NCBI GenBank assembly: GCA_041657955.1
Contig: JBBABA010000001.1
Location: forward strand, 40,578 to 104,577
Length of the DNA: 64,000 nt
Source of the DNA: Thermoplasmata archaeon
Lineage (GTDB): Archaea; Thermoplasmatota; JASEFT01; JBBABA01
Direction of reading: 5' to 3'
Shown here: positions 2,795-22,960 of the stretch, in pieces
Position numbering within the stretch: position 1 is the stretch's first letter
Layout of the letters: each line of letters begins with the position of its first letter
Translations under genes and position numbers: made by a program
Notes under the pieces: generated by a model
What the model was told of the DNA's origin: nothing
The model's database searches: none
What the model saw: only the letters and a program-made list of their open reading frames with translations

Positions 2795-2989
2795 TTATGC
2801 TTCGTATCTTGCTTTAAAACTTGTAACGTAACCAGCAACCCTGTTTCGCAATTTTTTCTTGCCATTCACGTCAGTAAGTTCTTCTACCATTTTTTTATTG
2901 TGCTGATAGTCGCTAGTAAACTCATTGGGAAATCTCTTAACCAACGCGATGGCGATGTTCTTTATGTGTGTAGATCGGATATTGCCCAT
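2795..2989 (-). CDS. rps17e: 30S ribosomal protein S17e
   Basis: 64-aa ORF; N-terminus MGNIRSTHIKNIA...FTSDYQHNKK typical of S17e. Confidence 0.85.
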   Translation of the reverse strand: MGNIRSTHIKNIAIALVKRFPNEFTSDYQHNKKMVEELTDVNGKKKLRNRVAGYVTSFKARYEA

Positions 2990-3127
2990 TTAGATACCGT
3001 ATGCCAAGAAAGATGCTTCCTGTAGATAAACGTTTCTTTTAATGATTCAGAGCATATGGGAGCATAACACACGATTTATTGGCGCCCCAAAAAACATTTA
3101 TGCGTCTAACAGCTACCTCGTTTTCAG

Positions 3128-6100
3128 ATGTTTAGGCGACCTGTTATTTTCGCAGCATTATGTGTCCTGTTGTGCCTCCTCCCAACCCCATCAGTGGCTG
3201 CTGTGAAAGCATATTCACCTCCTGCATCATATCATACTTTTTCCTCCATGGTCCAGGAACTTCAGAATCTGCAGGCAAGCCATCCGGACCTGGTGAAGAT
3301 GGAGAGCATAGGAAAGACTTGGGAAGGCCGGGATATTTGGGCTGTAAAAATTTCAGATGATGTGGCAACAAACGATTCTAGTGAGCCGGACGTGTTAATT
3401 TTCGGTGGTATCCACGCACGCGAAGTCATGGGAGTAGAGGTTCCCATGTATGTACTGAACTACCTGATAGACAAGTACGGCACGGACGAGGCGTGCACAA
3501 AATACGTCAACACAAGGGAGATATGGTTCGTGCCTATGATCAACCCTGACGGGCATGATTTTGTTGTCGTGCAGGATTACGACTGGCGCAAAAATCGGCG
3601 CCCGACAACAGGAGGAAACATCGGAGTGGACCTAAACCGAAACTGGGGGTATATGTGGGGCACGGACTCAGCTACCAGTTCGAATCCGGCGAGCGAGACC
3701 TACCACGGCCCGTATCCCTTCTCGGAGAGCGAGATAATAGCCCTACGCGATCTGTCACTCAGGCAGCGATTCGCCACATCCCTCTCATTCCATAGCTTTG
3801 GCGAATATGTACTGTTCCCCTGGGGGTATACCAACACCCATTGTCCGGACTATACCGAACTCAGCACGATGGCGAATGTGATGGCGGGCATGAACGGTTA
3901 CACCGCGATGCCAGCATATCAGCTATACGTCACGCATGGTGATTCGGACGACTGGTTATATGGTACCACCAGCACGAAGGCGTTCACAATCGAATTAGAC
4001 GACAGGTTCTATCCACCGGAAAGCTGGATAAGCGCCACCTGCATCCTAAACCGCGGACCGGTGCTATACCTCATAGGCTACCCGCATTCTCAGATTGCTG
4101 ATGCCGGAATATTCGGGCTTACCAGCCCCGCCAACGGAACGGCTATTGGATCAGACAGTGTTTTGAATGTCAACGCAAGGGTGATGAACTATGGCGATTC
4201 TGAAATTGATATTCCTGTAGAACTGGCGATCACCTCGCCGGAAGGCTATACCGATATAAACTCCACCACTGCACATTTGCGGGCGGGACAGGTGAAGGAT
4301 GTTGTTTTCTCATGGTCTCCCCCGTTCCCGGGAACAGAGAACTATACTTTGAGCGTTCGTACTAATCTTACGGGCGACGAATATTCCCGGAACGATTGGA
4401 AGAATTCTTCATTCAAAATCAAGGCAAAATACGGCGTAACCCTCAACGCCACAAATCTTTCACGCAGCGCGTTTCCAGGAGAATCCGTGAACTACTCTTT
4501 CCAGATGTTTAGCTCGAGCAATAGAGAAGACGACGTCCTATTAGCGAAGTCTGGCAACCATGCGGAATGGGTTTCAGCACCGTCTTCCATTCACATTCTG
4601 CCCGGCGGCCAAACCGAGATAAACATAAGCGTTTCCATTCCGAGAAACGCCTCCGCGGGGGGAACTGTTGTTGTTTCCATTGGGGCGCAATCTTCGACTG
4701 GAGAGGGTTCCCCTGCACTCCTCACCACTCGAACTACGATACTAGACGCCACCCCTACAGCCGATGCGGGGAATGACGTTCTAGCAAACATTAGTGAGTC
4801 ATTAGAGTTTGATGGTTCCGGTTCTTCTACGCCTATCGGCACAATATTGCGGTACGCCTGGGACTTTGGAGATGGCAACGGCAGCGAAGGCACAAAGGCG
4901 GCACATTCCTATGAAAAAGCAGGAGATTATACGGTCAAACTAATGGTGTTCAACGATTTGGATTTGCAGGGAAGCGATTATGTTAATGTCACTGTTCAGC
5001 AACTATTCAGGATAAATCTCTCTGCGGAATCCACAGATATAGCGATTGCACCTGACGAATCCGTCAAAGTTAATCTAAGTGTTGTGAACTCGGGTGATGG
5101 CTTGGATGCCGTTAATGTCGATTTAAGCGCTCTGATGTGGAACGCGTCTCTCGACACACGCTACACTTCACTGAACGCTGGGCAAAAGAAGATTATGACA
5201 TTAAACGTCACTGCTCCGGTCGATGCGTTAGCAAACGCTAAGGCACAATTCCAAATCACAACAACATCCGCGGGAAATCCTCTGGCGAAGAGTTCTGTTA
5301 CAATCACAGCTACAGTAAAAGAGACGCGAAACCTGGTGTCGAATATTTCAGAAAGCGCCATGACTGCAAATGCCGGAGACAACGCCACATTTTGGCTGAC
5401 GTTCAATAATTCGGGCAATGTCAAAGAGAAACTCCAGATGTCAGCCGAGGATTTGCCTAAAGACTGGAAGATACTGTTCTCTTCGGATGTGGCAACTGTA
5501 GGGCCGCGGAACACCACGAAAATAAAAGCAAACGTTTCCGTGCCGTCAGATGCTCTCGCAGGAAGATATGTGTTTGCGGTAAACGGCCAGCATCTGGAGG
5601 TAGTTATCAATCCAAAATATGGGTTTGAAGCCTCGGCAAAACAATCGGCAACTGCAGTTGTTTCCGGAGAGCGAGTCCTGTTCGAAGTCGTAGTAAAAAA
5701 CGCCGGCAACGCGCCTGACACCTATTTCTTAAACTTCACAGAATTGCCTGCGGGGTGGTCGATTGAAAATTCCGATGCGTTTATCGTGCCCCCTGGAGAA
5801 AATTATACAAAGAGTACAGGTGTCCGGATTCCGAGTGGCACAACGTCTGGCAAGTACAATTTGACGTTTCAAATCTGCTCAGCCAATTCTACCAATATCA
5901 TAAAAAATTTGACGTTCCAAATAGAAGTGTCTGAAACACCGGTGGATAATGAGATAGCAAGCGAGTCCGAGGGTTTCTTTTCATCTCCAATATTTATCAT
6001 GAGCGCGATAGCTATTTTAATCATCCTGTCTGCGGCGGGCATCGGAATATATTACGTTTCCTGGACTATCCGGAAGAGCGATTCGATGAGCCGACCGTCC

Positions 6101-7294: not shown

Positions 7295-9049
7295 TTAGGT
7301 TTTTCTCTTCCTTAACGCGCATGAACAGATACCGACAAGCGGCAAAAGCAACGCAAATTCAAATCCGGGTATGAAGAAACTATCTACCTGCCCGGTCTTT
7401 ACGACTATAGAATCCTTTCCTTCTTTGCCAGAATCGTCAATCACCCTGAATACTGCGCGGTAGACACCGTTTTTTGGATACGTGTAATACACTTCTCCCG
7501 TGGTTGTGGAGTTCCAATCATACATGCCGTCGCCGTCAAAGTCCCATTGATAGTAGATTATTTTTCCGTCGGTGTCCGTGCCTTCGCCGTAGAAATGTAT
7601 TGTTGTGTTTCCTCCGACCGCTATGTCTCTCCCTGCGTTTGCGACCGGCGGTTTCTTGTTCGGATCAAGGTCGCCTATGATTATAGGAATTTTTGATGTA
7701 TCCGCGCTTATTGTCCCTTCGTTGTCCATTACTCTCAGCGAGGCTTCGTATCTCCCGCTGCGGGTGTATGTGTAGCGCGCACTTGGTAAAGTGGTCCATC
7801 CGCTATCAGTGCCGTCGCCGAAAATAAAGATGTATTTTTCAACAGCGCCGTCATTGTCCGTAGATTCCAAGCCATAAAAAGTAACAGATTTTCCTACATC
7901 GGCAACTACCGTATTCACTGTCAGCACGGGTTTCGGTCTTTGATTTGGATACTTCAAGACTTTGCCGCTGGTGCCGACGATTAGGGCATAGCCATTGTAA
8001 TCGCCGCCATACTCGCCCGTATATGGCCTCCAGGATACGGAGTACAAATCCATGTCCATTTCCGTGGATAGTGTTTCGATCGAGCTCTCGTTGCCGTATC
8101 TCAGTACGGTTCCCTTTTCTCCGACAATAATCGCGTATTCGCCGTCCGGTTTCCAGGAAATCTTGGTTAACTGCGTATTTTTCCATGCTACATCCGCATA
8201 TTTTGTTGAATCTACAGCTGTTTTTGTCTTGTAAGTGTTGCCGTCGTATTTCAGTATAACACCCCTGCTGCCCACAATGATCCCGTAATCGTCGTTTGGC
8301 CTCCAGGATATGCTTTGCAGCCAACTGTAACCCGCGGCAGCATCTATATTATACGAAATGTCTGAAAAACTGCTGGAGTAGTATCTCAATACAGTTCCGG
8401 AGTAACCGACACAAACAGCGAACGTGCCTCTTCTGCTCCATGCGATGCCGTGTAAATCGTCTGTCGTACCACTCTTAAACGATAGGTTTTGCACTTCTAC
8501 ACCATTGTATGTAAGCACAGAGCCGCTGTAGCCTACAATCATAGCATAAGTGCCGTCAGGAGACCAGGTAATGCTTCGCAACATGCTGCTGGTTCCGTTT
8601 TTAATAAACTCGCTTGAAAGATTCGTTATAGTGTCTGTCGCATTATCGTATCTCAAGATTGCTCCAAGATAGCTCTTCGCCTTATAGTCACCTACAATCA
8701 GCGCATAATCTTCGTATGGCGACCATGCAACATCATACAAATCGAAGTTCGAGTAATTGACAGATCCGTTTACCGTGGTGAACGCGCTACCATCATATTT
8801 CAAAATCGTGCCGTTGTTGCCAACGACCAGCGCGCAACTGCCGTCGGGTTTCCATGAAACTCCCCGGAGTGTATTTGTTGTCCCCGTGGAGATGACTGCT
8901 TTGTTGTCATAATCTACGAACGCCAAATCATTGTTATCCGCACGAACTGGTACTGTACTCAATAGTGGTGTCAGTATGAAAGTAAGTACGATCGCCCCTG
9001 CGAGCAGTCTTTTTTTCATGTTAATTTCTTCAGCCGCTTCCTTTTTCAT
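7295..9049 (-). CDS. surface protein: PD40-like beta-propeller repeats + PKD domains + PGF-CTERM anchor
   Basis: signal peptide (probable start at M11, 9019); ~8 repeats of W-x-PDG-x-YA-x-IVG; two PKD-like segments; C-terminal ...IPGFEFALLLPLVGI...RKRKT. Confidence 0.7.
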   Translation of the reverse strand: MKKEAAEEINMKKRLLAGAIVLTFILTPLLSTVPVRADNNDLAFVDYDNKAVISTGTTNTLRGVSWKPDGSCALVVGNNGTILKYDGSAFTTVNGSVNYSNFDLYDVAWSPYEDYALIVGDYKAKSYLGAILRYDNATDTITNLSSEFIKNGTSSMLRSITWSPDGTYAMIVGYSGSVLTYNGVEVQNLSFKSGTTDDLHGIAWSRRGTFAVCVGYSGTVLRYYSSSFSDISYNIDAAAGYSWLQSISWRPNDDYGIIVGSRGVILKYDGNTYKTKTAVDSTKYADVAWKNTQLTKISWKPDGEYAIIVGEKGTVLRYGNESSIETLSTEMDMDLYSVSWRPYTGEYGGDYNGYALIVGTSGKVLKYPNQRPKPVLTVNTVVADVGKSVTFYGLESTDNDGAVEKYIFIFGDGTDSGWTTLPSARYTYTRSGRYEASLRVMDNEGTISADTSKIPIIIGDLDPNKKPPVANAGRDIAVGGNTTIHFYGEGTDTDGKIIYYQWDFDGDGMYDWNSTTTGEVYYTYPKNGVYRAVFRVIDDSGKEGKDSIVVKTGQVDSFFIPGFEFALLLPLVGICSCALRKRKT

Positions 9050-9110
9050 ATAGCGTCTCCTTTTTGCGCACTCCGATAAAGTTATGAACCGACGAAATAT
9101 TAAACTAACC

Positions 9111-10889
9111 TCATTCCCTTTTCATAAACGAACCCTTCGGGAGGATTTTGTGGATTCTGTTTTGGATTTTCTTTTTTGCCGCATCAACAAATAGAATCAG
9201 CGAAACAATGCATAAGAGCGCAAGAATATCAAAGGCGGGTAGGAACCATCCTCCAGTTTCGCCGGCCTCTACGATAACCGTGTCCTTTGCGATGCCCCCG
9301 TTGTTATCAGTTACTCTGAAAACAGCACGATATGTACCGTTCTTTGGATAAGTATATGCTGCATTTCCCGTAGTTGTAGAATTCCAATCATATTTGCCGT
9401 CGCCGTCGAAATCCCATTGGTAGTAAACAATTCTTCCATCGGCGTCTATTCCCTCACCATAAAATTGTAAGCTTTTGCCACTCATTACCTTAATGTCCGG
9501 TCCTGCCTTGGCGGAGGGAGGTTTGTTGGTCGAATCTACGACTCCGACGATGACGGGTATTACCGCAACATTTGTGCTATATACATCCTTGTCGTCCCTG
9601 ACCCTAAGCGACGCGTTGTATCTTCCGACTGTATCGTATGCGTGGGTGGTCGCTGGATTGGCCATCCATCCGCTGTCAGTACCGTCACCAAACTCAAAAC
9701 AATATTGCCGAACGGCTCCGTCCGGGTCTCTTGAGTTGTAGCCATAGAACGTAACTATTCGCCCCTGGTTTGTCACCACGTCGTCAATAGTAATTTCTGC
9801 GATTGGCCTCTGATCTGGATACCTAAGCACCAAACCGTCGGTACCTGCTATAACCGCATAGCTCCCATTATACTCCCAAGACACACTGTGTAGGTCGGAA
9901 CCTATCTGCGTAGAAAGAGTTTCAAATTGGACAGGAAGAGACTCGTTGTATTTTATGACGAGCCCGTTGTCTCCCACTATGAGGGCGTATCCTTGGTATC
10001 CGTCCAAATCCGGGCGTTCGTCGGGCTTCCAAGCGATATTTCTCAATGTAGTAAATCTCCCAGCGCCTGCGTATTTTGTTGTGAATATTGTGCCGTCATA
10101 CTTAAGGATTGTTTCGTGTGTGCCGAGTATAAGTGCATATTCCCCGTCCGGGGACCATGTTACAGCCAATAGATCTTGGTCCGTCCTTCCTAGTAGTTCT
10201 ACACCACTCGTGAGGTTTGTGAATTCCTTATTTTTATCGTCGAATTTTATGACAGTACCCTTGTTCCCGACAATTAGTGCATAGCTGCCGTCTGGTTTCC
10301 AAGCGACGCTGGACAAATAAACGGTTTTGTCTTTTATAAACGTGAATCTCGTCTGGTTGTTGTCTGTCCTCGATGGATCAAATGCGGAGATGTGCCCCTC
10401 ATCGCCGACAAGCAGGGCGTAGCTGCCGTCGGGTTTCCATGCGGCGCCACGAATCGTGTTCGGGGTGTCGTGGGTGATAGGCACGTAAGAAACATTTGTG
10501 AGATTGCTGCCATCGTATCGGTATATGGAACCGTACTCCCCAACAATTAGCGCGAAGTCGCCCTGCGGTCGCCATGCTACTGCGTGCCAGTTAAACGCGA
10601 CGCCGAGATCGACTGGGATAAATCCGTTGTCCGTGCATTTTAGCACAGTCCTATCTCCAACAATGAGCCCGTACCTTGCCTTCGGTTTCCAATCTACTGC
10701 ATTGAGTGTTCTGTTTGTATTTGTGGGTGGCAAGGTCGCATCCAGAGGTTGAACACTGTAATGCACAACAAATGCAGGTCCATTGTCGTTTTGGGCACAA
10801 TTATTTGTAGGCAAGAAATTCAAAATCAGCAAAAGCATAACGAAGACGGCAAATATCGACGGTGTTTTTATGAACTTTTCCATTTTCAA
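9111..10889 (-). CDS. surface protein paralog: PD40-like beta-propeller repeats + PKD domains + PGF-CTERM-like (PAF) anchor
   Basis: same architecture as 7295..9049; C-terminal LPAFDILALLCIVSLILF followed by basic tail. Confidence 0.7.
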   Translation of the reverse strand: MKMEKFIKTPSIFAVFVMLLLILNFLPTNNCAQNDNGPAFVVHYSVQPLDATLPPTNTNRTLNAVDWKPKARYGLIVGDRTVLKCTDNGFIPVDLGVAFNWHAVAWRPQGDFALIVGEYGSIYRYDGSNLTNVSYVPITHDTPNTIRGAAWKPDGSYALLVGDEGHISAFDPSRTDNNQTRFTFIKDKTVYLSSVAWKPDGSYALIVGNKGTVIKFDDKNKEFTNLTSGVELLGRTDQDLLAVTWSPDGEYALILGTHETILKYDGTIFTTKYAGAGRFTTLRNIAWKPDERPDLDGYQGYALIVGDNGLVIKYNESLPVQFETLSTQIGSDLHSVSWEYNGSYAVIAGTDGLVLRYPDQRPIAEITIDDVVTNQGRIVTFYGYNSRDPDGAVRQYCFEFGDGTDSGWMANPATTHAYDTVGRYNASLRVRDDKDVYSTNVAVIPVIVGVVDSTNKPPSAKAGPDIKVMSGKSLQFYGEGIDADGRIVYYQWDFDGDGKYDWNSTTTGNAAYTYPKNGTYRAVFRVTDNNGGIAKDTVIVEAGETGGWFLPAFDILALLCIVSLILFVDAAKKKIQNRIHKILPKGSFMKRE

Positions 10890-14938: not shown

Positions 14939-15745
14939 TTAGTGTTTCTTTTTTAACTCGTTGAGTGCGTCCTCTACTGAAGCGTCGTTTAGAACAATTT
15001 TCGATATTGCACGAGTAACGGCAACGACGTCCTTGTGCTGGAATACGTTTCTTCCGATAGATACGCCGGAAGCGCCGGCATCCATCGCGCCCCTCACCAT
15101 GACAAATAACGCTTTGTCGGAGTCTATTTTCGGCCCGCCTGCAATCAACACTGGCACTGGGCACGATCTGACTACCTCTTTAAACGATTCTTCACTTCCA
15201 GTGTAGTTTGTTTTTACAATGTCCGCTCCAAGTTCTGCTGCAGCCCTTGCGGCGTGTTTTACGTTTTCAACATTATATTCATCCTTGACCTTCGGGCCGC
15301 GCGGATAAGCCATAGCCAGAAGAGGCATTCCCCAATTGTTGCACGCTTCAGAAACAGCGCCGAGATCGAACAGCATCTCGCTCTCGGTCTCCGCACCGAC
15401 ATTTATATGAACAGAAACACCGTCGCCGCCCAATTTTATCACTTCCTCCACAGTGGAAACTAGCACTTTTTTATGCGTGGTGTTGCCTAATGCGGTGCTT
15501 GCGGAAATGTGGACGACCAGGCCGATATTTCTCCCGCCGCCCCCGTATCCTGGCGCGACCAAACCCTTATGAAGAACAACGGCTGTGGCGCCGCCTTCAG
15601 CCACCAGGTCGATCGTCTGCTTCGTGTTAACGATTCCTGCGATTGGGCCGACAGTAACGCCGTGGTCTATCGGAATCAATACGAATTTCTTTGTATTTTT
15701 ATCTGCTATTCGCGTTAATCTGACTTGCTTTCCTATGCTTAACAT
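14939..15745 (-). CDS. class I fructose-bisphosphate aldolase / ADH synthase family (DhnA-type)
   Basis: TIM-barrel DhnA-like motifs; start set at internal Met64 (MLSIGKQV) because the upstream 63 codons are Cys/Arg-rich non-protein-like. Confidence 0.7.
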   Translation of the reverse strand: MLSIGKQVRLTRIADKNTKKFVLIPIDHGVTVGPIAGIVNTKQTIDLVAEGGATAVVLHKGLVAPGYGGGGRNIGLVVHISASTALGNTTHKKVLVSTVEEVIKLGGDGVSVHINVGAETESEMLFDLGAVSEACNNWGMPLLAMAYPRGPKVKDEYNVENVKHAARAAAELGADIVKTNYTGSEESFKEVVRSCPVPVLIAGGPKIDSDKALFVMVRGAMDAGASGVSIGRNVFQHKDVVAVTRAISKIVLNDASVEDALNELKKKH

Positions 15746-16056
15746 ATGAATCTTCCCGAATGAATCTTCGCGAATTGTTGCCGTCGAGATAAACAGTATG
15801 TGTTGCGTCAATGTGTGTGGCGCACAATCGCTGTTAACTCGACGTCTTCTCAATACACAACATATTTTACATATTTTAAGGTTTGTCGGGGTTTTTGTAG
15901 GGTGTGAAGTCGGTGATAACGTGCCGTGCATCACACTTACAACAGGATTAGATTTATTGTTATGATGTTCATTATTTATACATTACATACGATATTTACA
16001 TAGAATATGATTTTATTGAAGCAAAAAATAAATATTGTGACGTTGTTGTGGAGTTG

Positions 16057-16185
16057 CCCGGCTTAGCTCAGACTGGTGGAGCGGGGGACTGTAGTTGGTT
16101 CTCGGAAGCCACAGATCGCATGGTCGAAGGCTTCCGATTCCCCGTTGACATCCTCAGGTCGTTGGTTCAAATCCGACAGCCGGGA
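16057..16185 (+). tRNA. tRNA-Tyr (anticodon GTA) with ~55-nt intron after position 37
   Basis: C1-G72 and A73 (archaeal Tyr identity); anticodon loop CTGTAG|intron; intron has internal helix CGGAAGCC/GGCTTCCG; exon 2 A-TCCTC-AGGTC-GTTGGTTCAAATCCGAC-AGCCGGG-A. Confidence 0.7.
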
Positions 16186-16670
16186 CCACATTATTATGAG
16201 TCTGTCGCGTTTATGATGCGATCGGGTAACTGGAATCTTAAAAGAATTGTTTTGAGGCGTTTTTGCAATATAAGCATATGATTACGAAAATCGCACGTAT
16301 TGCTTCAAATTAATGTATATATTAATAATTTATATCTTAAGTATAGTTTACTAATATATCGTAATTTAATGCTGGTTTTTATAAATAAAAATAAATAATT
16401 TCCTACCCTGGCACCCCTTGGTTTCGTGTGGAAGTGTATTTGTTTGTAGTATAGTAGGGCAACATTCATGAAATATGTGCTTTGGTATAGAAAGAGATAG
16501 TGATGATGTGTGTAGAGGGTGTGTGTTAAAAATCGAAACTGTTTTAAATTTTAATGATAGTTTTTGACATAAGTAACATCATCGATCGTTTTTCCCCAAA
16601 TTGAGATAATACAGATCACACAATCTAAATATACATATGTTGTTCTTGCGTTATAGTAAAGTGTGATTGA

Positions 16671-17870
16671 ATGGATGCTGTCTCTGCAGGTATGGTTGCA
16701 GCCATTGGCGGTGTGGCTGGAAAATTAGTTGAGAGAACGTGGACATCTGGTGAAAAATGGTTGAAATCTTTTTTTAAAGATCATCAGCCAGCAGCACAGC
16801 AAAAGGCACAGCAGAACGCATTAGATTTCTTAAACGAACTCGCCAATCGAGTACATGAAATTGAAAGCACGATAAAAGACAACTCTAGATATAAAAAATT
16901 TGTTGACGATGCATTATCCGATCCTGATTTCTCTGCATTATTAAAAGATGCTATGATTCATTCTAGCCGTACAGATTCAAACGAAAAACATAAATTACTT
17001 GCCCAACTTGTTTCGGAAAGATTGCACACATCACAAGGGTCGATGGTTGCAGCAGCGTGTAATTTAGCGTGTTCCACAATCCCTTATCTTACATCAGATC
17101 AACTTCGTTGTTTGGGTGTTATGTGTATATTGTATGAAGTTCGACCGCACCCTCGTCACCATATACATATAAAAACAAACCGTTTAGAGAAATCAACACA
17201 AACAACACAAGAAGAACAAGACATTGAATATTGGACGAACTGGCTCTCGAAAACATTGGGTCCAATGCTTCCTATCAAAAAAATGGGAAGAATTGATTAC
17301 GCTCACCTAGAATCGTTCTCATGCATCCGCCGTACAGTCTCTACTGGAAACAATACACAAACAATAGACGAATTTATAGAATCGACGATTCCGTCATTGC
17401 GTCTGGAGACGACACTGAAAGTATTCGGTGGTGTTGATAAAGCTACAAAAGAAAATCGCATCTTTAGAAAATATTTACACGAGAAACTTCCACAATATCA
17501 CAACTTATCTGAGATATGGAAAAGTGGTATACGCTTTGCGAGACTCTCAACAACCGGTATGATGATTGGTGCAAGCGTGATTGAAATGCTCGCTAACACC
17601 AAAGTCTATATTAAATGGGACGACGACGAACATGGTACGACTGAACAAAATGAACCGATCATTAACAACCAAAGATCTGAAATAGCGACCGACGTGTTGA
17701 TCAAAAAGCCTGTACTAGAACTAAAAGAATATCAAAACGCAGGTCGGGTAACCTCACAATACATGCACGATGGGGGGTTCGCCACAGGTAAACTATTAAA
17801 AACAACTCGAAAGAAACAAAGAAGCCACCAATATAAAAATAAAATCTCCACCCGAAACCAAGGGGTCTAG
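16671..17870 (+). CDS. orphan protein, function unknown (candidate accessory/defence-type protein)
   Basis: 399-aa ORF; no motif of a known enzyme family; AT-rich flanks; next to tRNA-Tyr; bracketed by an 18/19 inverted repeat. Confidence 0.55.
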   Translation: MDAVSAGMVAAIGGVAGKLVERTWTSGEKWLKSFFKDHQPAAQQKAQQNALDFLNELANRVHEIESTIKDNSRYKKFVDDALSDPDFSALLKDAMIHSSRTDSNEKHKLLAQLVSERLHTSQGSMVAAACNLACSTIPYLTSDQLRCLGVMCILYEVRPHPRHHIHIKTNRLEKSTQTTQEEQDIEYWTNWLSKTLGPMLPIKKMGRIDYAHLESFSCIRRTVSTGNNTQTIDEFIESTIPSLRLETTLKVFGGVDKATKENRIFRKYLHEKLPQYHNLSEIWKSGIRFARLSTTGMMIGASVIEMLANTKVYIKWDDDEHGTTEQNEPIINNQRSEIATDVLIKKPVLELKEYQNAGRVTSQYMHDGGFATGKLLKTTRKKQRSHQYKNKISTRNQGV

Positions 17871-17896
17871 GGGTAACACCCCCAACCCAGACGCAA

Positions 17897-18550
17897 TTAC
17901 TTCTTTACCCACATCCCACCAGTCTCTTTAACTACCTTCTTCTCTTTAAGAACTTCCAGCACTGGTTCGAGGATATTCTCGTTCACATCTATCTGGAACT
18001 GCCTAAAAAGGGCGTTTCTTATCTTTTTGGTAGATTTAGGGGCATCCAGCGTCTTTGGAATGAGAGATTGGAGATCTTCGTTGATATTCCATGGAAATAT
18101 AAACCAAGCCCAGTCCTTCTCGGGAACGATCTCGCCATAGAAGTCAGGGATTATCTTTGAATGTGTGATGTGCAGCAATGTGGCAGATTTCGCGCTCTTT
18201 GGCTTGAGACCTTTCACATGGTTGATCGCGAGCATTAAGCTCTGACCAGTATCTGTGATATCGTCCACGACAAGCACGTTCTTGCCTTTGATGTTCGCGG
18301 TCAGCGGTTGGGCGATCTTTGCTGTGCCGTCCGGCGTGGCAGTCACGCCCCAATGCTCGGTTTTGACGCTGTACAAATTCTTTATAACTAGGTGATCGCA
18401 AACAAGTCTTGCAGGTGCCCAGCCGCCTCTCGTAATTCCGATTACCGCATCTAAATTGAGTTTCGCGATCTTGATTTTTTTTACCAAATTGCTCGTCCAC
18501 TCATGGACTTCATCCCAAGAAACAAGCGTACATTTGAAGGATTCGATCAT
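17897..18550 (-). CDS. phosphoribosyltransferase (type I PRT, purine PRT-like)
   Basis: PRPP-binding motif VLVVDDITDTGQS. Confidence 0.75.
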   Translation of the reverse strand: MIESFKCTLVSWDEVHEWTSNLVKKIKIAKLNLDAVIGITRGGWAPARLVCDHLVIKNLYSVKTEHWGVTATPDGTAKIAQPLTANIKGKNVLVVDDITDTGQSLMLAINHVKGLKPKSAKSATLLHITHSKIIPDFYGEIVPEKDWAWFIFPWNINEDLQSLIPKTLDAPKSTKKIRNALFRQFQIDVNENILEPVLEVLKEKKVVKETGGMWVKK

Positions 18551-22582: not shown

Positions 22583-22654
22583 GCGGCTGTAGTCTAGTGG
22601 TTAGGACTGGAGCTTCCCAAGCTTCAAACTCGGGTTCAAATCCCGGCAGCCGCA
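22583..22654 (+). tRNA. tRNA-Gly (anticodon CCC)
   Basis: acceptor GCGGCTG/CAGCCGC; anticodon loop TTCCCAA; T-loop GGTTCAAATCC. Confidence 0.85.
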
Positions 22655-22960
22655 CATCAACCAACAGAACCAATTAACAGTGATAGGATTTGAACCGAAG
22701 GTGTTGGAAAATTTTTAACTAATTATATTGAAATTTTTTAACTGAGTGGTATAAAGCACCTCTACATCAAATCCCGACAACCGCACATTGGCTGATAGAA
22801 CTAATTTTAACAGTGGCGGGATTTGAAAATGCGACGAACAAATATCATAACATCGCATGGCTCTGAAAAATTTTAATACACATTGTAGAAATTTTTCACT
22901 CCGAAGGAGAAACCCCGGCAGCCGCACATAAAACTCGGGGCAGCGCATACCCCGCGCATA
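22655..22960. repeat. degenerate copies of the tRNA-Gly 3' half (T-arm + acceptor), direct and inverted; att-site-like remnants
   Basis: TCAAATCCCGGCAGCCGCACAT (tRNA end) recurs as CATCAAATCCCGACAACCGCACATTGGCT (~22768) and CCCCGGCAGCCGCACAT (~22913); inverted GGATTTGAA arms at ~22686 and ~22816. Confidence 0.6.

Follow-up and report, generated by a model that had tools for sequence, protein, structure and literature searches.

Predicted origin recognition boxes probably bracket an exchanged gene slot beside tRNA-Tyr in a Thermoplasmata archaeon

The locus lies in a 64-kb stretch of DNA from a Thermoplasmata archaeon (the window), between a tRNA-Tyr gene and a phosphoribosyltransferase (PRTase) gene, and its features are collected in Table 1. 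The intron-containing tRNA-Tyr, already described in the initial annotation, was recovered by Rfam (RF00005 at 16057-16185, 46.2 bits) and by ARAGORN, which called tRNA-Tyr(GTA) with its 55-nt intron when introns were allowed and missed the gene with default settings. It shares 93-96% identity with the tRNA-Tyr of two relatives (L147 and L146). The stretch of about 480 bp of AT-rich non-coding DNA noticed behind this gene is also present: it covers 482 bp (16189-16670), with a GC content of 0.26 at 16189-16403 and 0.31 at 16433-16670. The AT-richness alone is not distinctive, because several other intergenic regions of the 64-kb window are as AT-rich as this spacer. The part next to the tRNA aligns to the relatives with 43-47% identity and many gaps, and the block that follows it is 74-81% identical to L147 and L146, with the inner ~35 nt near-invariant and a GC content of only 0.16 over 16330-16403. 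This block could be a candidate unwinding element or a promoter.

Table 1. Features of the locus between tRNA-Tyr and the PRTase gene (window positions).
Feature	Position	Strand	Remarks
tRNA-Tyr(GTA)	16057..16188	+	55-nt intron at the canonical anticodon-loop position; encoded CCA end
AT-rich spacer 3' of the tRNA, poorly conserved	16189..16346	.	GC ~0.26
Conserved AT-rich block on the outer (G-string) side of the left box, GCTGGTTTTTATAAATAAAAATAAATAATTTCC...	16347..16403	.	
Left origin recognition box (ORB-L), by sequence	16404..16432	-	minus strand reads TCCACACGAAACCAAGGGGTgccAGGGTA
Lineage-specific inter-ORB segment, 1414 bp	16433..17846	.	no similarity to relatives' inter-ORB DNA
5' non-coding part of the putatively acquired segment	16433..16670	+	GC 0.307
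LPO_1073/Vpar_1526-family gene core, residues 1-315	16671..17615	+	spans the family's full length
Atypical 85-codon C-terminal tail	17616..17870	+	ends at TAG inside ORB-R
Right origin recognition box (ORB-R), by sequence	17847..17875	+	TCCACCCGAAACCAAGGGGTctaGGGGTA; strict ORB-pattern match
Phosphoribosyltransferase gene, conserved right flank	17897..18550	-	PF00156

Behind the spacer, the 399-aa ORF (16671-17870) was confirmed. It had been regarded as an orphan, and this does not hold: the protein is a full-length member of NCBIfam NF045477 / Pfam PF28206, the LPO_1073/Vpar_1526 family. It matches NF045477 over residues 17-314 (model positions 1-253 of 257; E=5.3e-49), and the score of 167.2 bits lies well above the curated cut-off of 45, while the PF28206 assignment is precomputed for an identical protein (P0001). 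The family comprises about 930 clusters (representatives) at 50% identity, and a search with the family profile recovers the window protein at E=6e-107. A Pfam search of the ORF gave only sub-threshold noise in a Pfam set without PF28206, and in PHROGs the N-terminal 158 residues matched phrog_19542 (E=7e-25), whose function is uncharacterised. Nothing was found at E<=10 among solved structures searched by sequence with the family profile; tblastn of the ORF protein against plasmid and phage collections gave no matches, nor did viral contigs when scanned with patterns from the family alignment. Vpar_1526 itself is an uncharacterised entry in the protein table of a subcellular-fractionation (outer-membrane proteome) study of Veillonella parvula (PMC5491611). 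The composition of the ORF is deviant, as had been suspected: its GC content (0.398) is the second-lowest among the 42 long ORFs in the window, and its GC3 (0.343) is the lowest (mean 0.496, sd 0.059).

The C-terminal end of the protein departs from the family. All 18 aligned homologues end at W314-D/E and lack the tail; of the 150 best family representatives, most have about 270-300 aa. The predicted structure is all-helical, with pLDDT of 80-95 in the core helices and below 50 for residues 320-399, and the tail has the poorest codon-usage score in the gene. The last seven codons of the ORF and its stop fall in the resident right box. The tail is probably a read-through or disordered extension, and it would exist because the usual stop of the family is missing and translation runs on to the TAG in ORB-R. 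At the other end of the gene, the 5' non-coding part has no Rfam match at E<=1; it presumably holds the putative promoter of the ORF and, lying inside ORB-L, may also act as an unwinding region.

An abortive-infection role had been proposed for the protein. PADLOC found no match for the ORF to any defence profile, and two of the three homologue contexts examined adjoin defence-type genes (SMODS+SLATT; type I R-M). Such a role is possible, and it is neither supported nor excluded by these results. The protein is possibly an accessory factor, putatively membrane-associated and putatively defence-related.

The inverted repeat around this gene is real. The 19-mer at 16413-16431 has an inverted second copy at 17848-17866 with one mismatch (18/19), and the similarity extends to 29 nt at 83% identity (16404-16432 and 17847-17875). 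The right arm had been placed in the last seven codons of the ORF; the overlap stands but was understated, the stop codon being inside the arm as well. At up to 3 mismatches, these two are the only matches to the 19-mer in 64 kb, with 0.03 expected from shuffles. Both arms read TCCAC-N-CGAAACCAAGGGGT (N = A/C) followed by a second G-run, and TCCA-N3-GAAAC-N-AA-GGGGT with the second G-run fits both of them. The published consensus of the archaeal origin recognition box (ORB) is CTTCCAGTGGAAACGAAAGGGGT for Archaea and GTTCCAGTGGAAATGG-AGGGGTA for Methanomassiliicoccales (PMC4153887, Table 2), and the same paper remarks on an extra GGGGGT beside it. Both arms agree with the consensus that we tested (TTCCA-N3-GGAAAC-N2-4-GGGGT, with the G-string); in an ungapped scan ORB-L agrees with the Archaea consensus at 16 of 23 positions, and the Methanomassiliicoccales form, one base shorter, fits both arms as judged by eye. 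A strict ORB pattern occurs in the 64-kb window only at ORB-L and ORB-R, and in 1.44 Mb of unselected loci only at this locus, in its relatives and in a cluster of three ORBs directly upstream of a cdc6 gene (L049), which served as positive control. Further, degenerate ORBs or mini-ORBs were not found above background at the locus. By sequence, the repeat arms are thus canonical archaeal ORBs, that is, predicted Orc1/Cdc6 binding sites. A reading of the arms as long-range RNA pairing or a bulge-helix-bulge (BHB) structure was rejected, as they have no BHB geometry and the ORB identity accounts for them.

The same box is found at orc1/cdc6 loci of other archaea. The exact 20-mer ACCCCTTGGTTTCGNGTGGA is present in 43 metagenome stretches, and in at least 27 of these 43 loci an orc1/cdc6 gene lies within about 0.1-0.8 kb (tblastn; Pfam Cdc6_lid, Cdc6_C). 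The linked initiators are annotated as ORC1-type, for example in Methanoregula, Methanoculleus and Nanosalinarum. At the cdc6-linked loci the boxes form inward-facing -/+ pairs, 87-350 nt apart, around AT-rich DNA, and the pair in the window, 16432 (-) / 17847 (+), has the same orientation. ORBs on both sides of cdc6 are reported for 'Ca. M. alvus' (PMC4153887), and one metagenome locus (L093) also carries ORBs on either side of its cdc6. The 19-mer also matches viral contigs and a few metagenome stretches in conserved, coding-looking sequence with GC ~0.5, and these matches were judged unrelated to ORBs.

To see what is conserved around the ORF, orthologous tRNA-Tyr loci were compared. It turned out that relatives at about 78-92% nucleotide identity keep the flanks, with aldolase and tRNA-Tyr on one side and PRTase on the other, and both boxes between tRNA-Tyr and the PRTase gene, with the ORF replaced by other genes, so that the ORF is lineage-specific at this locus. 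In L147 the order is aldolase, tRNA-Tyr, AT block, ORB-L, 1271 nt with two small genes, ORB-R and PRTase. ORB-L adjoins tRNA-Tyr in L146, and ORB-R adjoins PRTase in L142, L143 and L144; the closest relatives are short metagenome contigs, and the inter-ORB state of L142/L146 is joined from two contigs of one sample. L142, L143, L144/L145 and L147 share an identical ORB-R core, which in each case lies immediately 3' of the PRTase gene, and ORB-L is 90-93% conserved at the same position in L146 and L147, against 43-47% for the neighbouring spacer. The PRTase proteins of the relatives (P0034-P0037) share 84-97% amino acid identity with that of the window. The blastn alignments to L142, L143, L144, L146 and L147 end at 16432 and restart at 17844-17847, and the segment between has a GC content of 0.38 against 0.445 for the window. 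The slot of the relatives holds two or three small genes of other kinds, and the inter-ORB genes of all lineages are small, uncharacterised and low in GC. A scan of a genome collection with the neighbouring GlyRS is silent on the presence or absence of the ORF, because its best match has 54% identity and none of the 80 loci is syntenic. Around the PRTase gene of Aciduliprofundum boonei and a related MAG, synteny is different, and neither cdc6 nor an ORB is present.

Both boxes are kept and the homology ends at their inner edges, which therefore points to a conserved, initiator-less ORB pair bracketing a variable slot. We consider it quite probable that a resident ORB pair brackets a replaced gene slot. 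The pair is kept between tRNA-Tyr and PRTase, inward-facing and 1.3-1.4 kb apart, with no initiator gene nearby. In this genome the slot is probably occupied by an LPO_1073/Vpar_1526-family gene that came in by horizontal transfer along with its own upstream sequence. Judging from its sequence and context, the ORF is a recently acquired member of a known, uncharacterised family rather than a gene carried in by a small transposon. The turnover between the boxes may be bounded by selection on them, or aided by recombination at them. Orc1/Cdc6 would bind both boxes with defined polarity, and for this reason the locus may be, or may have been, an origin-type module, whether active, dormant or relic.

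Is the locus a replication origin? At least two ORBs in inverted orientation are expected of an oriC, and 16432 (-) / 17847 (+) form such a pair; no initiator gene (orc1/cdc6 or whiP), a usual hallmark of archaeal origins (PMC4010727, PMC3528665), adjoins it. With three Cdc6 proteins as tblastn queries, nothing was found at E<0.6 in the 64-kb window, and there is no orc1/cdc6 in the 10-kb locus of L147 and no cdc6 remnant between the boxes. The DNA inside ORB-L is 238 nt at 31% GC, and outside it lies the conserved 16%-GC block. A gene separates the boxes, and their spacing of 1.3-1.4 kb is far wider than in the cdc6-linked examples (~0.09-0.35 kb). GC skew in the 64-kb window follows gene orientation and gives no clear origin signal, and a ranking by AT-richness and duplex stability does not set the locus apart from other intergenic regions. 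That the locus is an actively firing origin is possible but doubtful.

The absence of an initiator gene could also reflect history. A plasmid or virus with an ORB-flanked initiator may have integrated next to tRNA-Tyr in an ancestor, and its initiator gene of about 1.2-1.3 kb may later have been replaced, leaving the boxes about one gene-length apart; we regard this history as unlikely. In archaea, tRNA genes commonly serve as sites of integration, and Sulfolobus oriC3 has been suggested to derive from an extrachromosomal element by origin capture (Robinson and Bell 2007, cited in PMC4010727). The boxes without an initiator gene, their spacing of 1271-1414 nt, which approximates the length of a cdc6 gene (in L093 and 'Ca. 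M. alvus' cdc6 is ORB-flanked), and the small, low-GC genes that fill the slot in every lineage are consistent with such a capture. Against it, att repeats, an integrase and a cdc6 remnant are all absent, and the pair is conserved down to ~78% nucleotide identity; such strong conservation of the boxes suggests current function, not decay. A captured replicon is compatible with the resident pair and replaced slot that we prefer, and differs from it only in the assumed history.

It is rather improbable that the boxes are Orc1-family sites that do not serve initiation but, for example, control transcription or shape the chromosome around the tRNA-Tyr/PRTase interval. In Sulfolobus, non-initiator Orc1 paralogues are described as having a global regulatory role (PMC9738581), Methanomassiliicoccales are reported to have isolated ORBs away from cdc6 (PMC4153887), and the lack of a nearby initiator gene and the unusual spacing would agree with such a role. 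However, each box is a full initiator-type ORB with G-strings, identical to cdc6-linked boxes, the inward-facing geometry of the pair is canonical, and the literature consulted documents no regulatory function for such pairs.

A stronger form of our preferred reading gives the boxes a part in the exchange itself. The ORBs would then be fixed boundaries, and perhaps recombination substrates, of the slot, and the cassette of an initiator-less pair would be swapped wholesale between lineages, a proposal that we also hold to be rather improbable. The swap might proceed via recombination with ORB-bearing extrachromosomal replicons, or via breakage and repair at a firing origin, and accessory genes, the present Vpar_1526-family gene among them, would be installed precisely between two Orc1 sites, in an origin-proximal, high-dosage position.

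The initial annotation had read the locus as a small insertion targeted to tRNA-Tyr, bounded by terminal inverted repeats (TIRs) and carrying one cargo gene, possibly for abortive infection. Part of this stands: one acquired gene makes up a small islet, because the ORF is lineage-specific at the locus and compositionally deviant (low GC3). The inverted repeat is real and non-random, the locus adjoins a tRNA gene, and some family members lie near defence genes. The mobile-element ends and the tRNA targeting do not stand, and the whole model is very improbable. The arms are not the ends of the insertion, since they occupy the same positions in relatives without the ORF, and the foreign, non-homologous DNA lies strictly between them, the arms themselves excluded. 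They are also canonical ORBs, found likewise at cdc6-linked origins in archaea that are unrelated. The sequence on either side of the arms shows no target-site duplication, no partial copy of tRNA-Tyr (>=12 nt) that could serve as an att direct repeat occurs elsewhere in the 64-kb window, the ORF has no transposase or integrase domain, the neighbourhood has no integrase gene, and the window has no additional copy of an arm. Moreover, the left arm does not abut the 3' end of the tRNA but stands 215 bp away. L147, L142 and L146 in effect refute the model. That the repeat is a chance match without significance is scarcely credible: by our own estimate an 18/19 inverted match occurs about once per 64-kb window at any distance, but shuffles predict only 0.03 matches to this 19-mer, the relatives have conserved both arms, and each arm shows the motif that occurs at dozens of cdc6-linked sites. 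The last two points, conservation and association with cdc6, refute it.

An active or dormant origin at this locus would mean that an uncultured Thermoplasmata archaeon has an origin without an initiator gene alongside and with exchangeable coding DNA of more than 1 kb between its boxes; this would bear on how far archaeal origins tolerate disruption and on the co-evolution of origins with accessory genes. Besides, the locus gives a caution, as short conserved inverted repeats around a foreign-looking archaeal gene can be ORBs and not transposon ends. For the LPO_1073/Vpar_1526 family it is a clean natural gain event, although the role of the protein is not revealed thereby.

Compared with known systems, the window protein has the same invariants as the LPO_1073/Vpar_1526 family (G13, G14, G17, W30, D37-H38, P85-D86-F87, H107, D209, H212, S217-C218 and W283), and differs from typical members of about 270-300 aa by two internal insertions and the 85-residue tail. 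With tRNA-targeted elements and TIR transposons or MITEs, the locus shares the tRNA adjacency, an inverted repeat around one foreign gene and the low GC; unlike them it has no att or target-site duplication, integrase or transposase, and its arms are resident, conserved host sequence outside the foreign DNA. The likeness to known archaeal ORB origins lies in the ORB sequence, including the G-string and second G-run, in the inward-facing inverted orientation, in the adjacent AT-rich DNA and in the strong conservation of the boxes relative to their surroundings. Here, however, the 16 kb upstream and the 46 kb downstream contain no initiator gene, lineage-variable protein-coding genes lie between the boxes, and there are two boxes only, without mini-ORBs, at a spacing of 1.3-1.4 kb. 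The orphan ORBs of Methanomassiliicoccales, a related archaeal group, are likewise ORB-type motifs away from orc1/cdc6, such as ORB3 downstream of ftsZ and ORB4 downstream of nifH/nifE in 'Ca. M. intestinalis' (PMC4153887, Table 2). Those are single boxes without a partner ORB, whereas the present locus has a conserved inverted pair with a variable gene slot.

The conserved core ACCCCTTGGTTTCGNGTGGA of the arms of an inverted repeat downstream of tRNA-Tyr was found in 43 stretches when public metagenome contigs were scanned. A dozen of these contain two inverted copies about 185 nt apart with AT-rich DNA between them, and the genes flanking such paired motifs are orc1/cdc6 (Pfam Cdc6_lid, Cdc6_C). 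By tblastn, orc1/cdc6 lies within ~0.1-0.8 kb of the motif in at least 27 of the 43 loci, and the motif-linked initiators, annotated as ORC1-type in Methanoregula, Methanoculleus and Nanosalinarum, have a mutual identity down to ~44%. The motif of the arms fits the published consensus of origin recognition boxes (ORBs), the binding sites of Orc1/Cdc6 (Archaea CTTCCAGTGGAAACGAAAGGGGT; Methanomassiliicoccales GTTCCAGTGGAAATGG-AGGGGTA; PMC4153887 Table 2), and the second G-run in both arms agrees with the extra GGGGGT remarked in that paper. In the 64-kb window the strict ORB pattern matches the two arms only, and in 1.44 Mb of otherwise-fetched loci its matches are confined to the present locus and its relatives, apart from a single cluster of three ORBs next to a cdc6 gene in L049. 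The cdc6-linked pairs are always arranged -/+ (TCCA ends inward) with a spacing of 87-350 nt; the two arms in the window are oriented likewise, with a spacing of 1414 nt. Taken together, the arms are very probably ORBs resident at the locus (ORB-L and ORB-R). Motif matches in viral contigs and in a few metagenome contigs fall in conserved sequence that looks coding, and they are apparently unrelated. The L049 cluster served as positive control for the pattern; it belongs to a Methanosarcinales chromosome locus from the GlyRS scan, and its three ORBs directly upstream of orc1/cdc6 likely mark an oriC, ~3.5 kb from the GlyRS gene.

Positions of features in the window and in the contigs compared
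Sequence	Feature	Position (strand)	Remark
Window	tRNA-Tyr	16057-16185	Rfam
Window	AT-rich block	16347-16403	GCTGGTTTTTATAAATAAAAATAAATAATTTCC
Window	ORB-L	16404-16432 (-)	left arm, 29 nt
Window	19-mer and inverted match	16413-16431; 17848-17866	one mismatch
Window	399-aa ORF	16671-17870	stop TAG at 17868-17870
Window	ORB-R	17847-17875 (+)	right arm, 29 nt
Window	PRTase gene	17897-18550	
Window	tRNA-Gly(CCC)	22583-22655	
Window	~95-100-nt element	22686-22785 (+)	
Window	209-aa ORF	46314-46943 (-)	
Window	~95-100-nt element	47720-47818 (inverted)	
Window	tRNA-Gly(GCC)	47849-47923	
L142	slot gene trio	3446-4573	
L147	slot gene trio	2910-4002	
Relatives	slot gene 1, 131-133 aa		motif HWVWVAGVDET
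Relatives	slot gene 2, 163 aa		hydrophobic, lipoprotein-like N-terminus
Relatives	slot gene 3, 139 aa		marginal PD-(D/E)XK nuclease match; 63 aa (truncated) in L147
L049	three ORBs	15203-15675	
L049	orc1/cdc6	15770-16969	
L006	Vpar_1526 homologue and 267-aa gene	8001-9677	
L007	Vpar_1526 homologue and 267-aa gene	232-1908	

The window is from an uncultured Thermoplasmata archaeon. The sequence features described by the initial annotation are all present, namely a tRNA-Tyr with an intron, an AT-rich spacer, a 399-aa ORF and an 18/19 inverted repeat. The tRNA is a tRNA-Tyr(GTA) with a 55-nt canonical intron (ARAGORN, introns allowed), and it is followed by 482 bp of non-coding, AT-rich DNA (GC 0.26-0.31); Rfam (15900-18000, E<=1) gave no structured RNA family besides the tRNA. 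With up to 3 mismatches allowed, the window holds no third match to the repeated 19-mer (0.03 expected), and the inverted repeat turned out to be longer, 29 nt at 83%. The ORF is AT-rich as proposed, with the lowest GC3 among 42 long ORFs (0.343 against 0.496 +/- 0.059), and a protein identical to its product is annotated in a MAG, where the contig is ~458 kb long.

To compare the locus with relatives, we reached their contigs through close homologues of two flanking proteins. L147 (~78-81% nt identity) holds the whole interval on one contig in the order Memo to aldolase, tRNA-Tyr, AT-rich DNA, ORB-L, 1271 nt, ORB-R and PRTase, and its slot between the boxes holds genes for two small proteins of 133 and 163 aa as well as a truncated nuclease-like ORF. 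From one and the same sample, L146 (92%) contains tRNA-Tyr and ORB-L, while L142 (91%) contains ORB-R, PRTase, CoaBC and pantoate kinase. Ahead of these, L142 has a 1245-nt stretch encoding three small proteins; this stretch is partially homologous to the inter-ORB DNA of L147 and has no similarity to the window. ORB-R also lies beside PRTase in L143 and L144/L145 (83%). In every comparison the similarity to the window stops at 16432 and restarts at 17844-17847, which are the inner box edges. ORB-L is 90-93% conserved and the ORB-R core is identical, against 43-47% identity in the post-tRNA spacer. Directly outside ORB-L, a 57-nt AT-rich block is 74-81% conserved and almost invariant across the relatives (L147 and L146), whereas their neighbouring spacer is below 50% identity. 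The block might serve in unwinding, as a promoter or as a binding site for another protein. The small slot proteins of the relatives form a conserved gene trio with no family assignment beyond the marginal nuclease match. Beyond PRTase, the 83%-identity relatives (L143, L144 and L147 compared) are joined to the window's 25.7-26.2 or 52.9-54.9 kb sequence, indicating that close lineages differ by rearrangements in this region but share the ORB-R/PRTase junction.

Since the similarity breaks at the inner edges of boxes that the relatives keep, the 399-aa ORF and its 238-nt upstream region have very probably replaced other genes in a slot that two conserved host elements delimit. Because its stop codon lies inside the resident right box, the ORF has a chimeric 3' end. 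The proposal of an acquired single-gene islet is thus upheld by the comparison and by the GC3 of the ORF, and the reading of the repeat as mobile-element ends is wrong. Two explanations may account for the breakpoints. Either unconstrained DNA is gained and lost time and again up to limits set by selection on the boxes, or exchange is promoted by the boxes, through recombination with ORB-bearing replicons or origin-associated breaks. In its inner half, the window's ORB-L has CGAAAC, as in ORB-R, while relatives have GGAAAC or GGAAAT, which makes the arms more alike in the window (18/19) than in relatives (2-4 mismatches); this is a weak hint that conversion or crossover could have occurred within the box. 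A transposon bounded by terminal inverted repeats is rejected, because the arms persist in relatives without the gene and lie outside the foreign DNA; besides, there is no target-site duplication at the arms, no further copy of them in the window and no transposase in the ORF. A tRNA-targeted insertion is not supported either, with no tRNA-Tyr fragment of at least 12 nt elsewhere in the window, no integrase and the left box 215 bp away from the tRNA.

The ORF is not an orphan as first described. NF045477 (NCBIfam, LPO_1073/Vpar_1526 family) covers residues 17-314 (E=5e-49), PF28206 is precomputed for this protein and 32 homologues with 29-46% identity in a large protein database, and searching 1.84 billion representatives with a profile gave 930 family clusters (239 at E<=1e-30). 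Typical members have ~270-300 aa and stop where the window protein has W314-D315. The window protein runs on for another 85 residues, which are modelled as disordered (pLDDT below 50) and have the worst codon-usage score within the gene. PADLOC gave no match to the protein, while one PHROG of unknown function matches its N-terminal half. Two of three homologue contexts adjoin defence-type genes (SMODS+SLATT; type I R-M with YhcG) and the third lies among housekeeping genes; no family copies were found in plasmid, phage and viral-contig collections. The only mention found in the literature is Vpar_1526 as an uncharacterised entry in a protein table of a Veillonella parvula subcellular-fractionation (outer-membrane proteome) study (PMC5491611). 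Our guess is a membrane-associated accessory or defence factor. In one bacterial-type context (L006 and L007), a conserved 267-aa gene without Pfam or PADLOC match follows the homologue after 34 nt, and the pair, which may be a two-gene module, adjoins YhcG, GIY-YIG, Bro-N and type I R-M genes.

Elsewhere in the window, a 209-aa ORF resembles the Vpar_1526-family ORF in composition: no other ORF of the window is as low in GC (0.379), and its GC3 (0.357) is close to the minimum. This ORF, which has tRNA-Gly(GCC) close by, may have been acquired too. Just 3' of both tRNA-Gly genes there is a ~95-100-nt repeated element in which pieces resembling a T-arm and an acceptor stem (GGATTTGAACC ... TCAAATCCCGAC..CCGCA) have a ~60-nt AT-rich spacer between them. 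ARAGORN and Rfam made no call on it; by its appearance it could derive from a tRNA fragment or be a tRNA-like sequence of an unusual kind, split or with an intron.

What deserves attention is a conserved ORB pair without initiator gene that brackets a variable gene slot. The canonical sequences and inverted geometry of the boxes, their strong conservation, the adjacent AT-rich DNA and the local gene divergence (minus-strand at 7.3-15.9 kb, plus-strand at 18.9-22.3 kb) speak for an origin. Against it, the boxes, of which there are two only, lie four to fifteen times as far apart as those of cdc6-linked pairs; no orc1/cdc6 was found in the window and L147, nor a cdc6 remnant between the boxes. 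The AT-richness and duplex stability are equalled by other intergenic regions of the window, and GC skew is uninformative. Judged from sequence, an active origin is possible yet the smaller share of the probability, and the rest would be divided among an origin that is dormant or a relic (a captured replicon's relic included) and an Orc1 binding role other than initiation. According to reviews, an archaeal origin usually adjoins an initiator gene and has a short unwinding element with ORBs on its flanks (PMC4010727, PMC3528665, PMC12141716), whereas the window pair lacks such a gene and its boxes are far wider apart. In Methanomassiliicoccales, isolated ORBs away from cdc6 have nevertheless been reported (PMC4153887).
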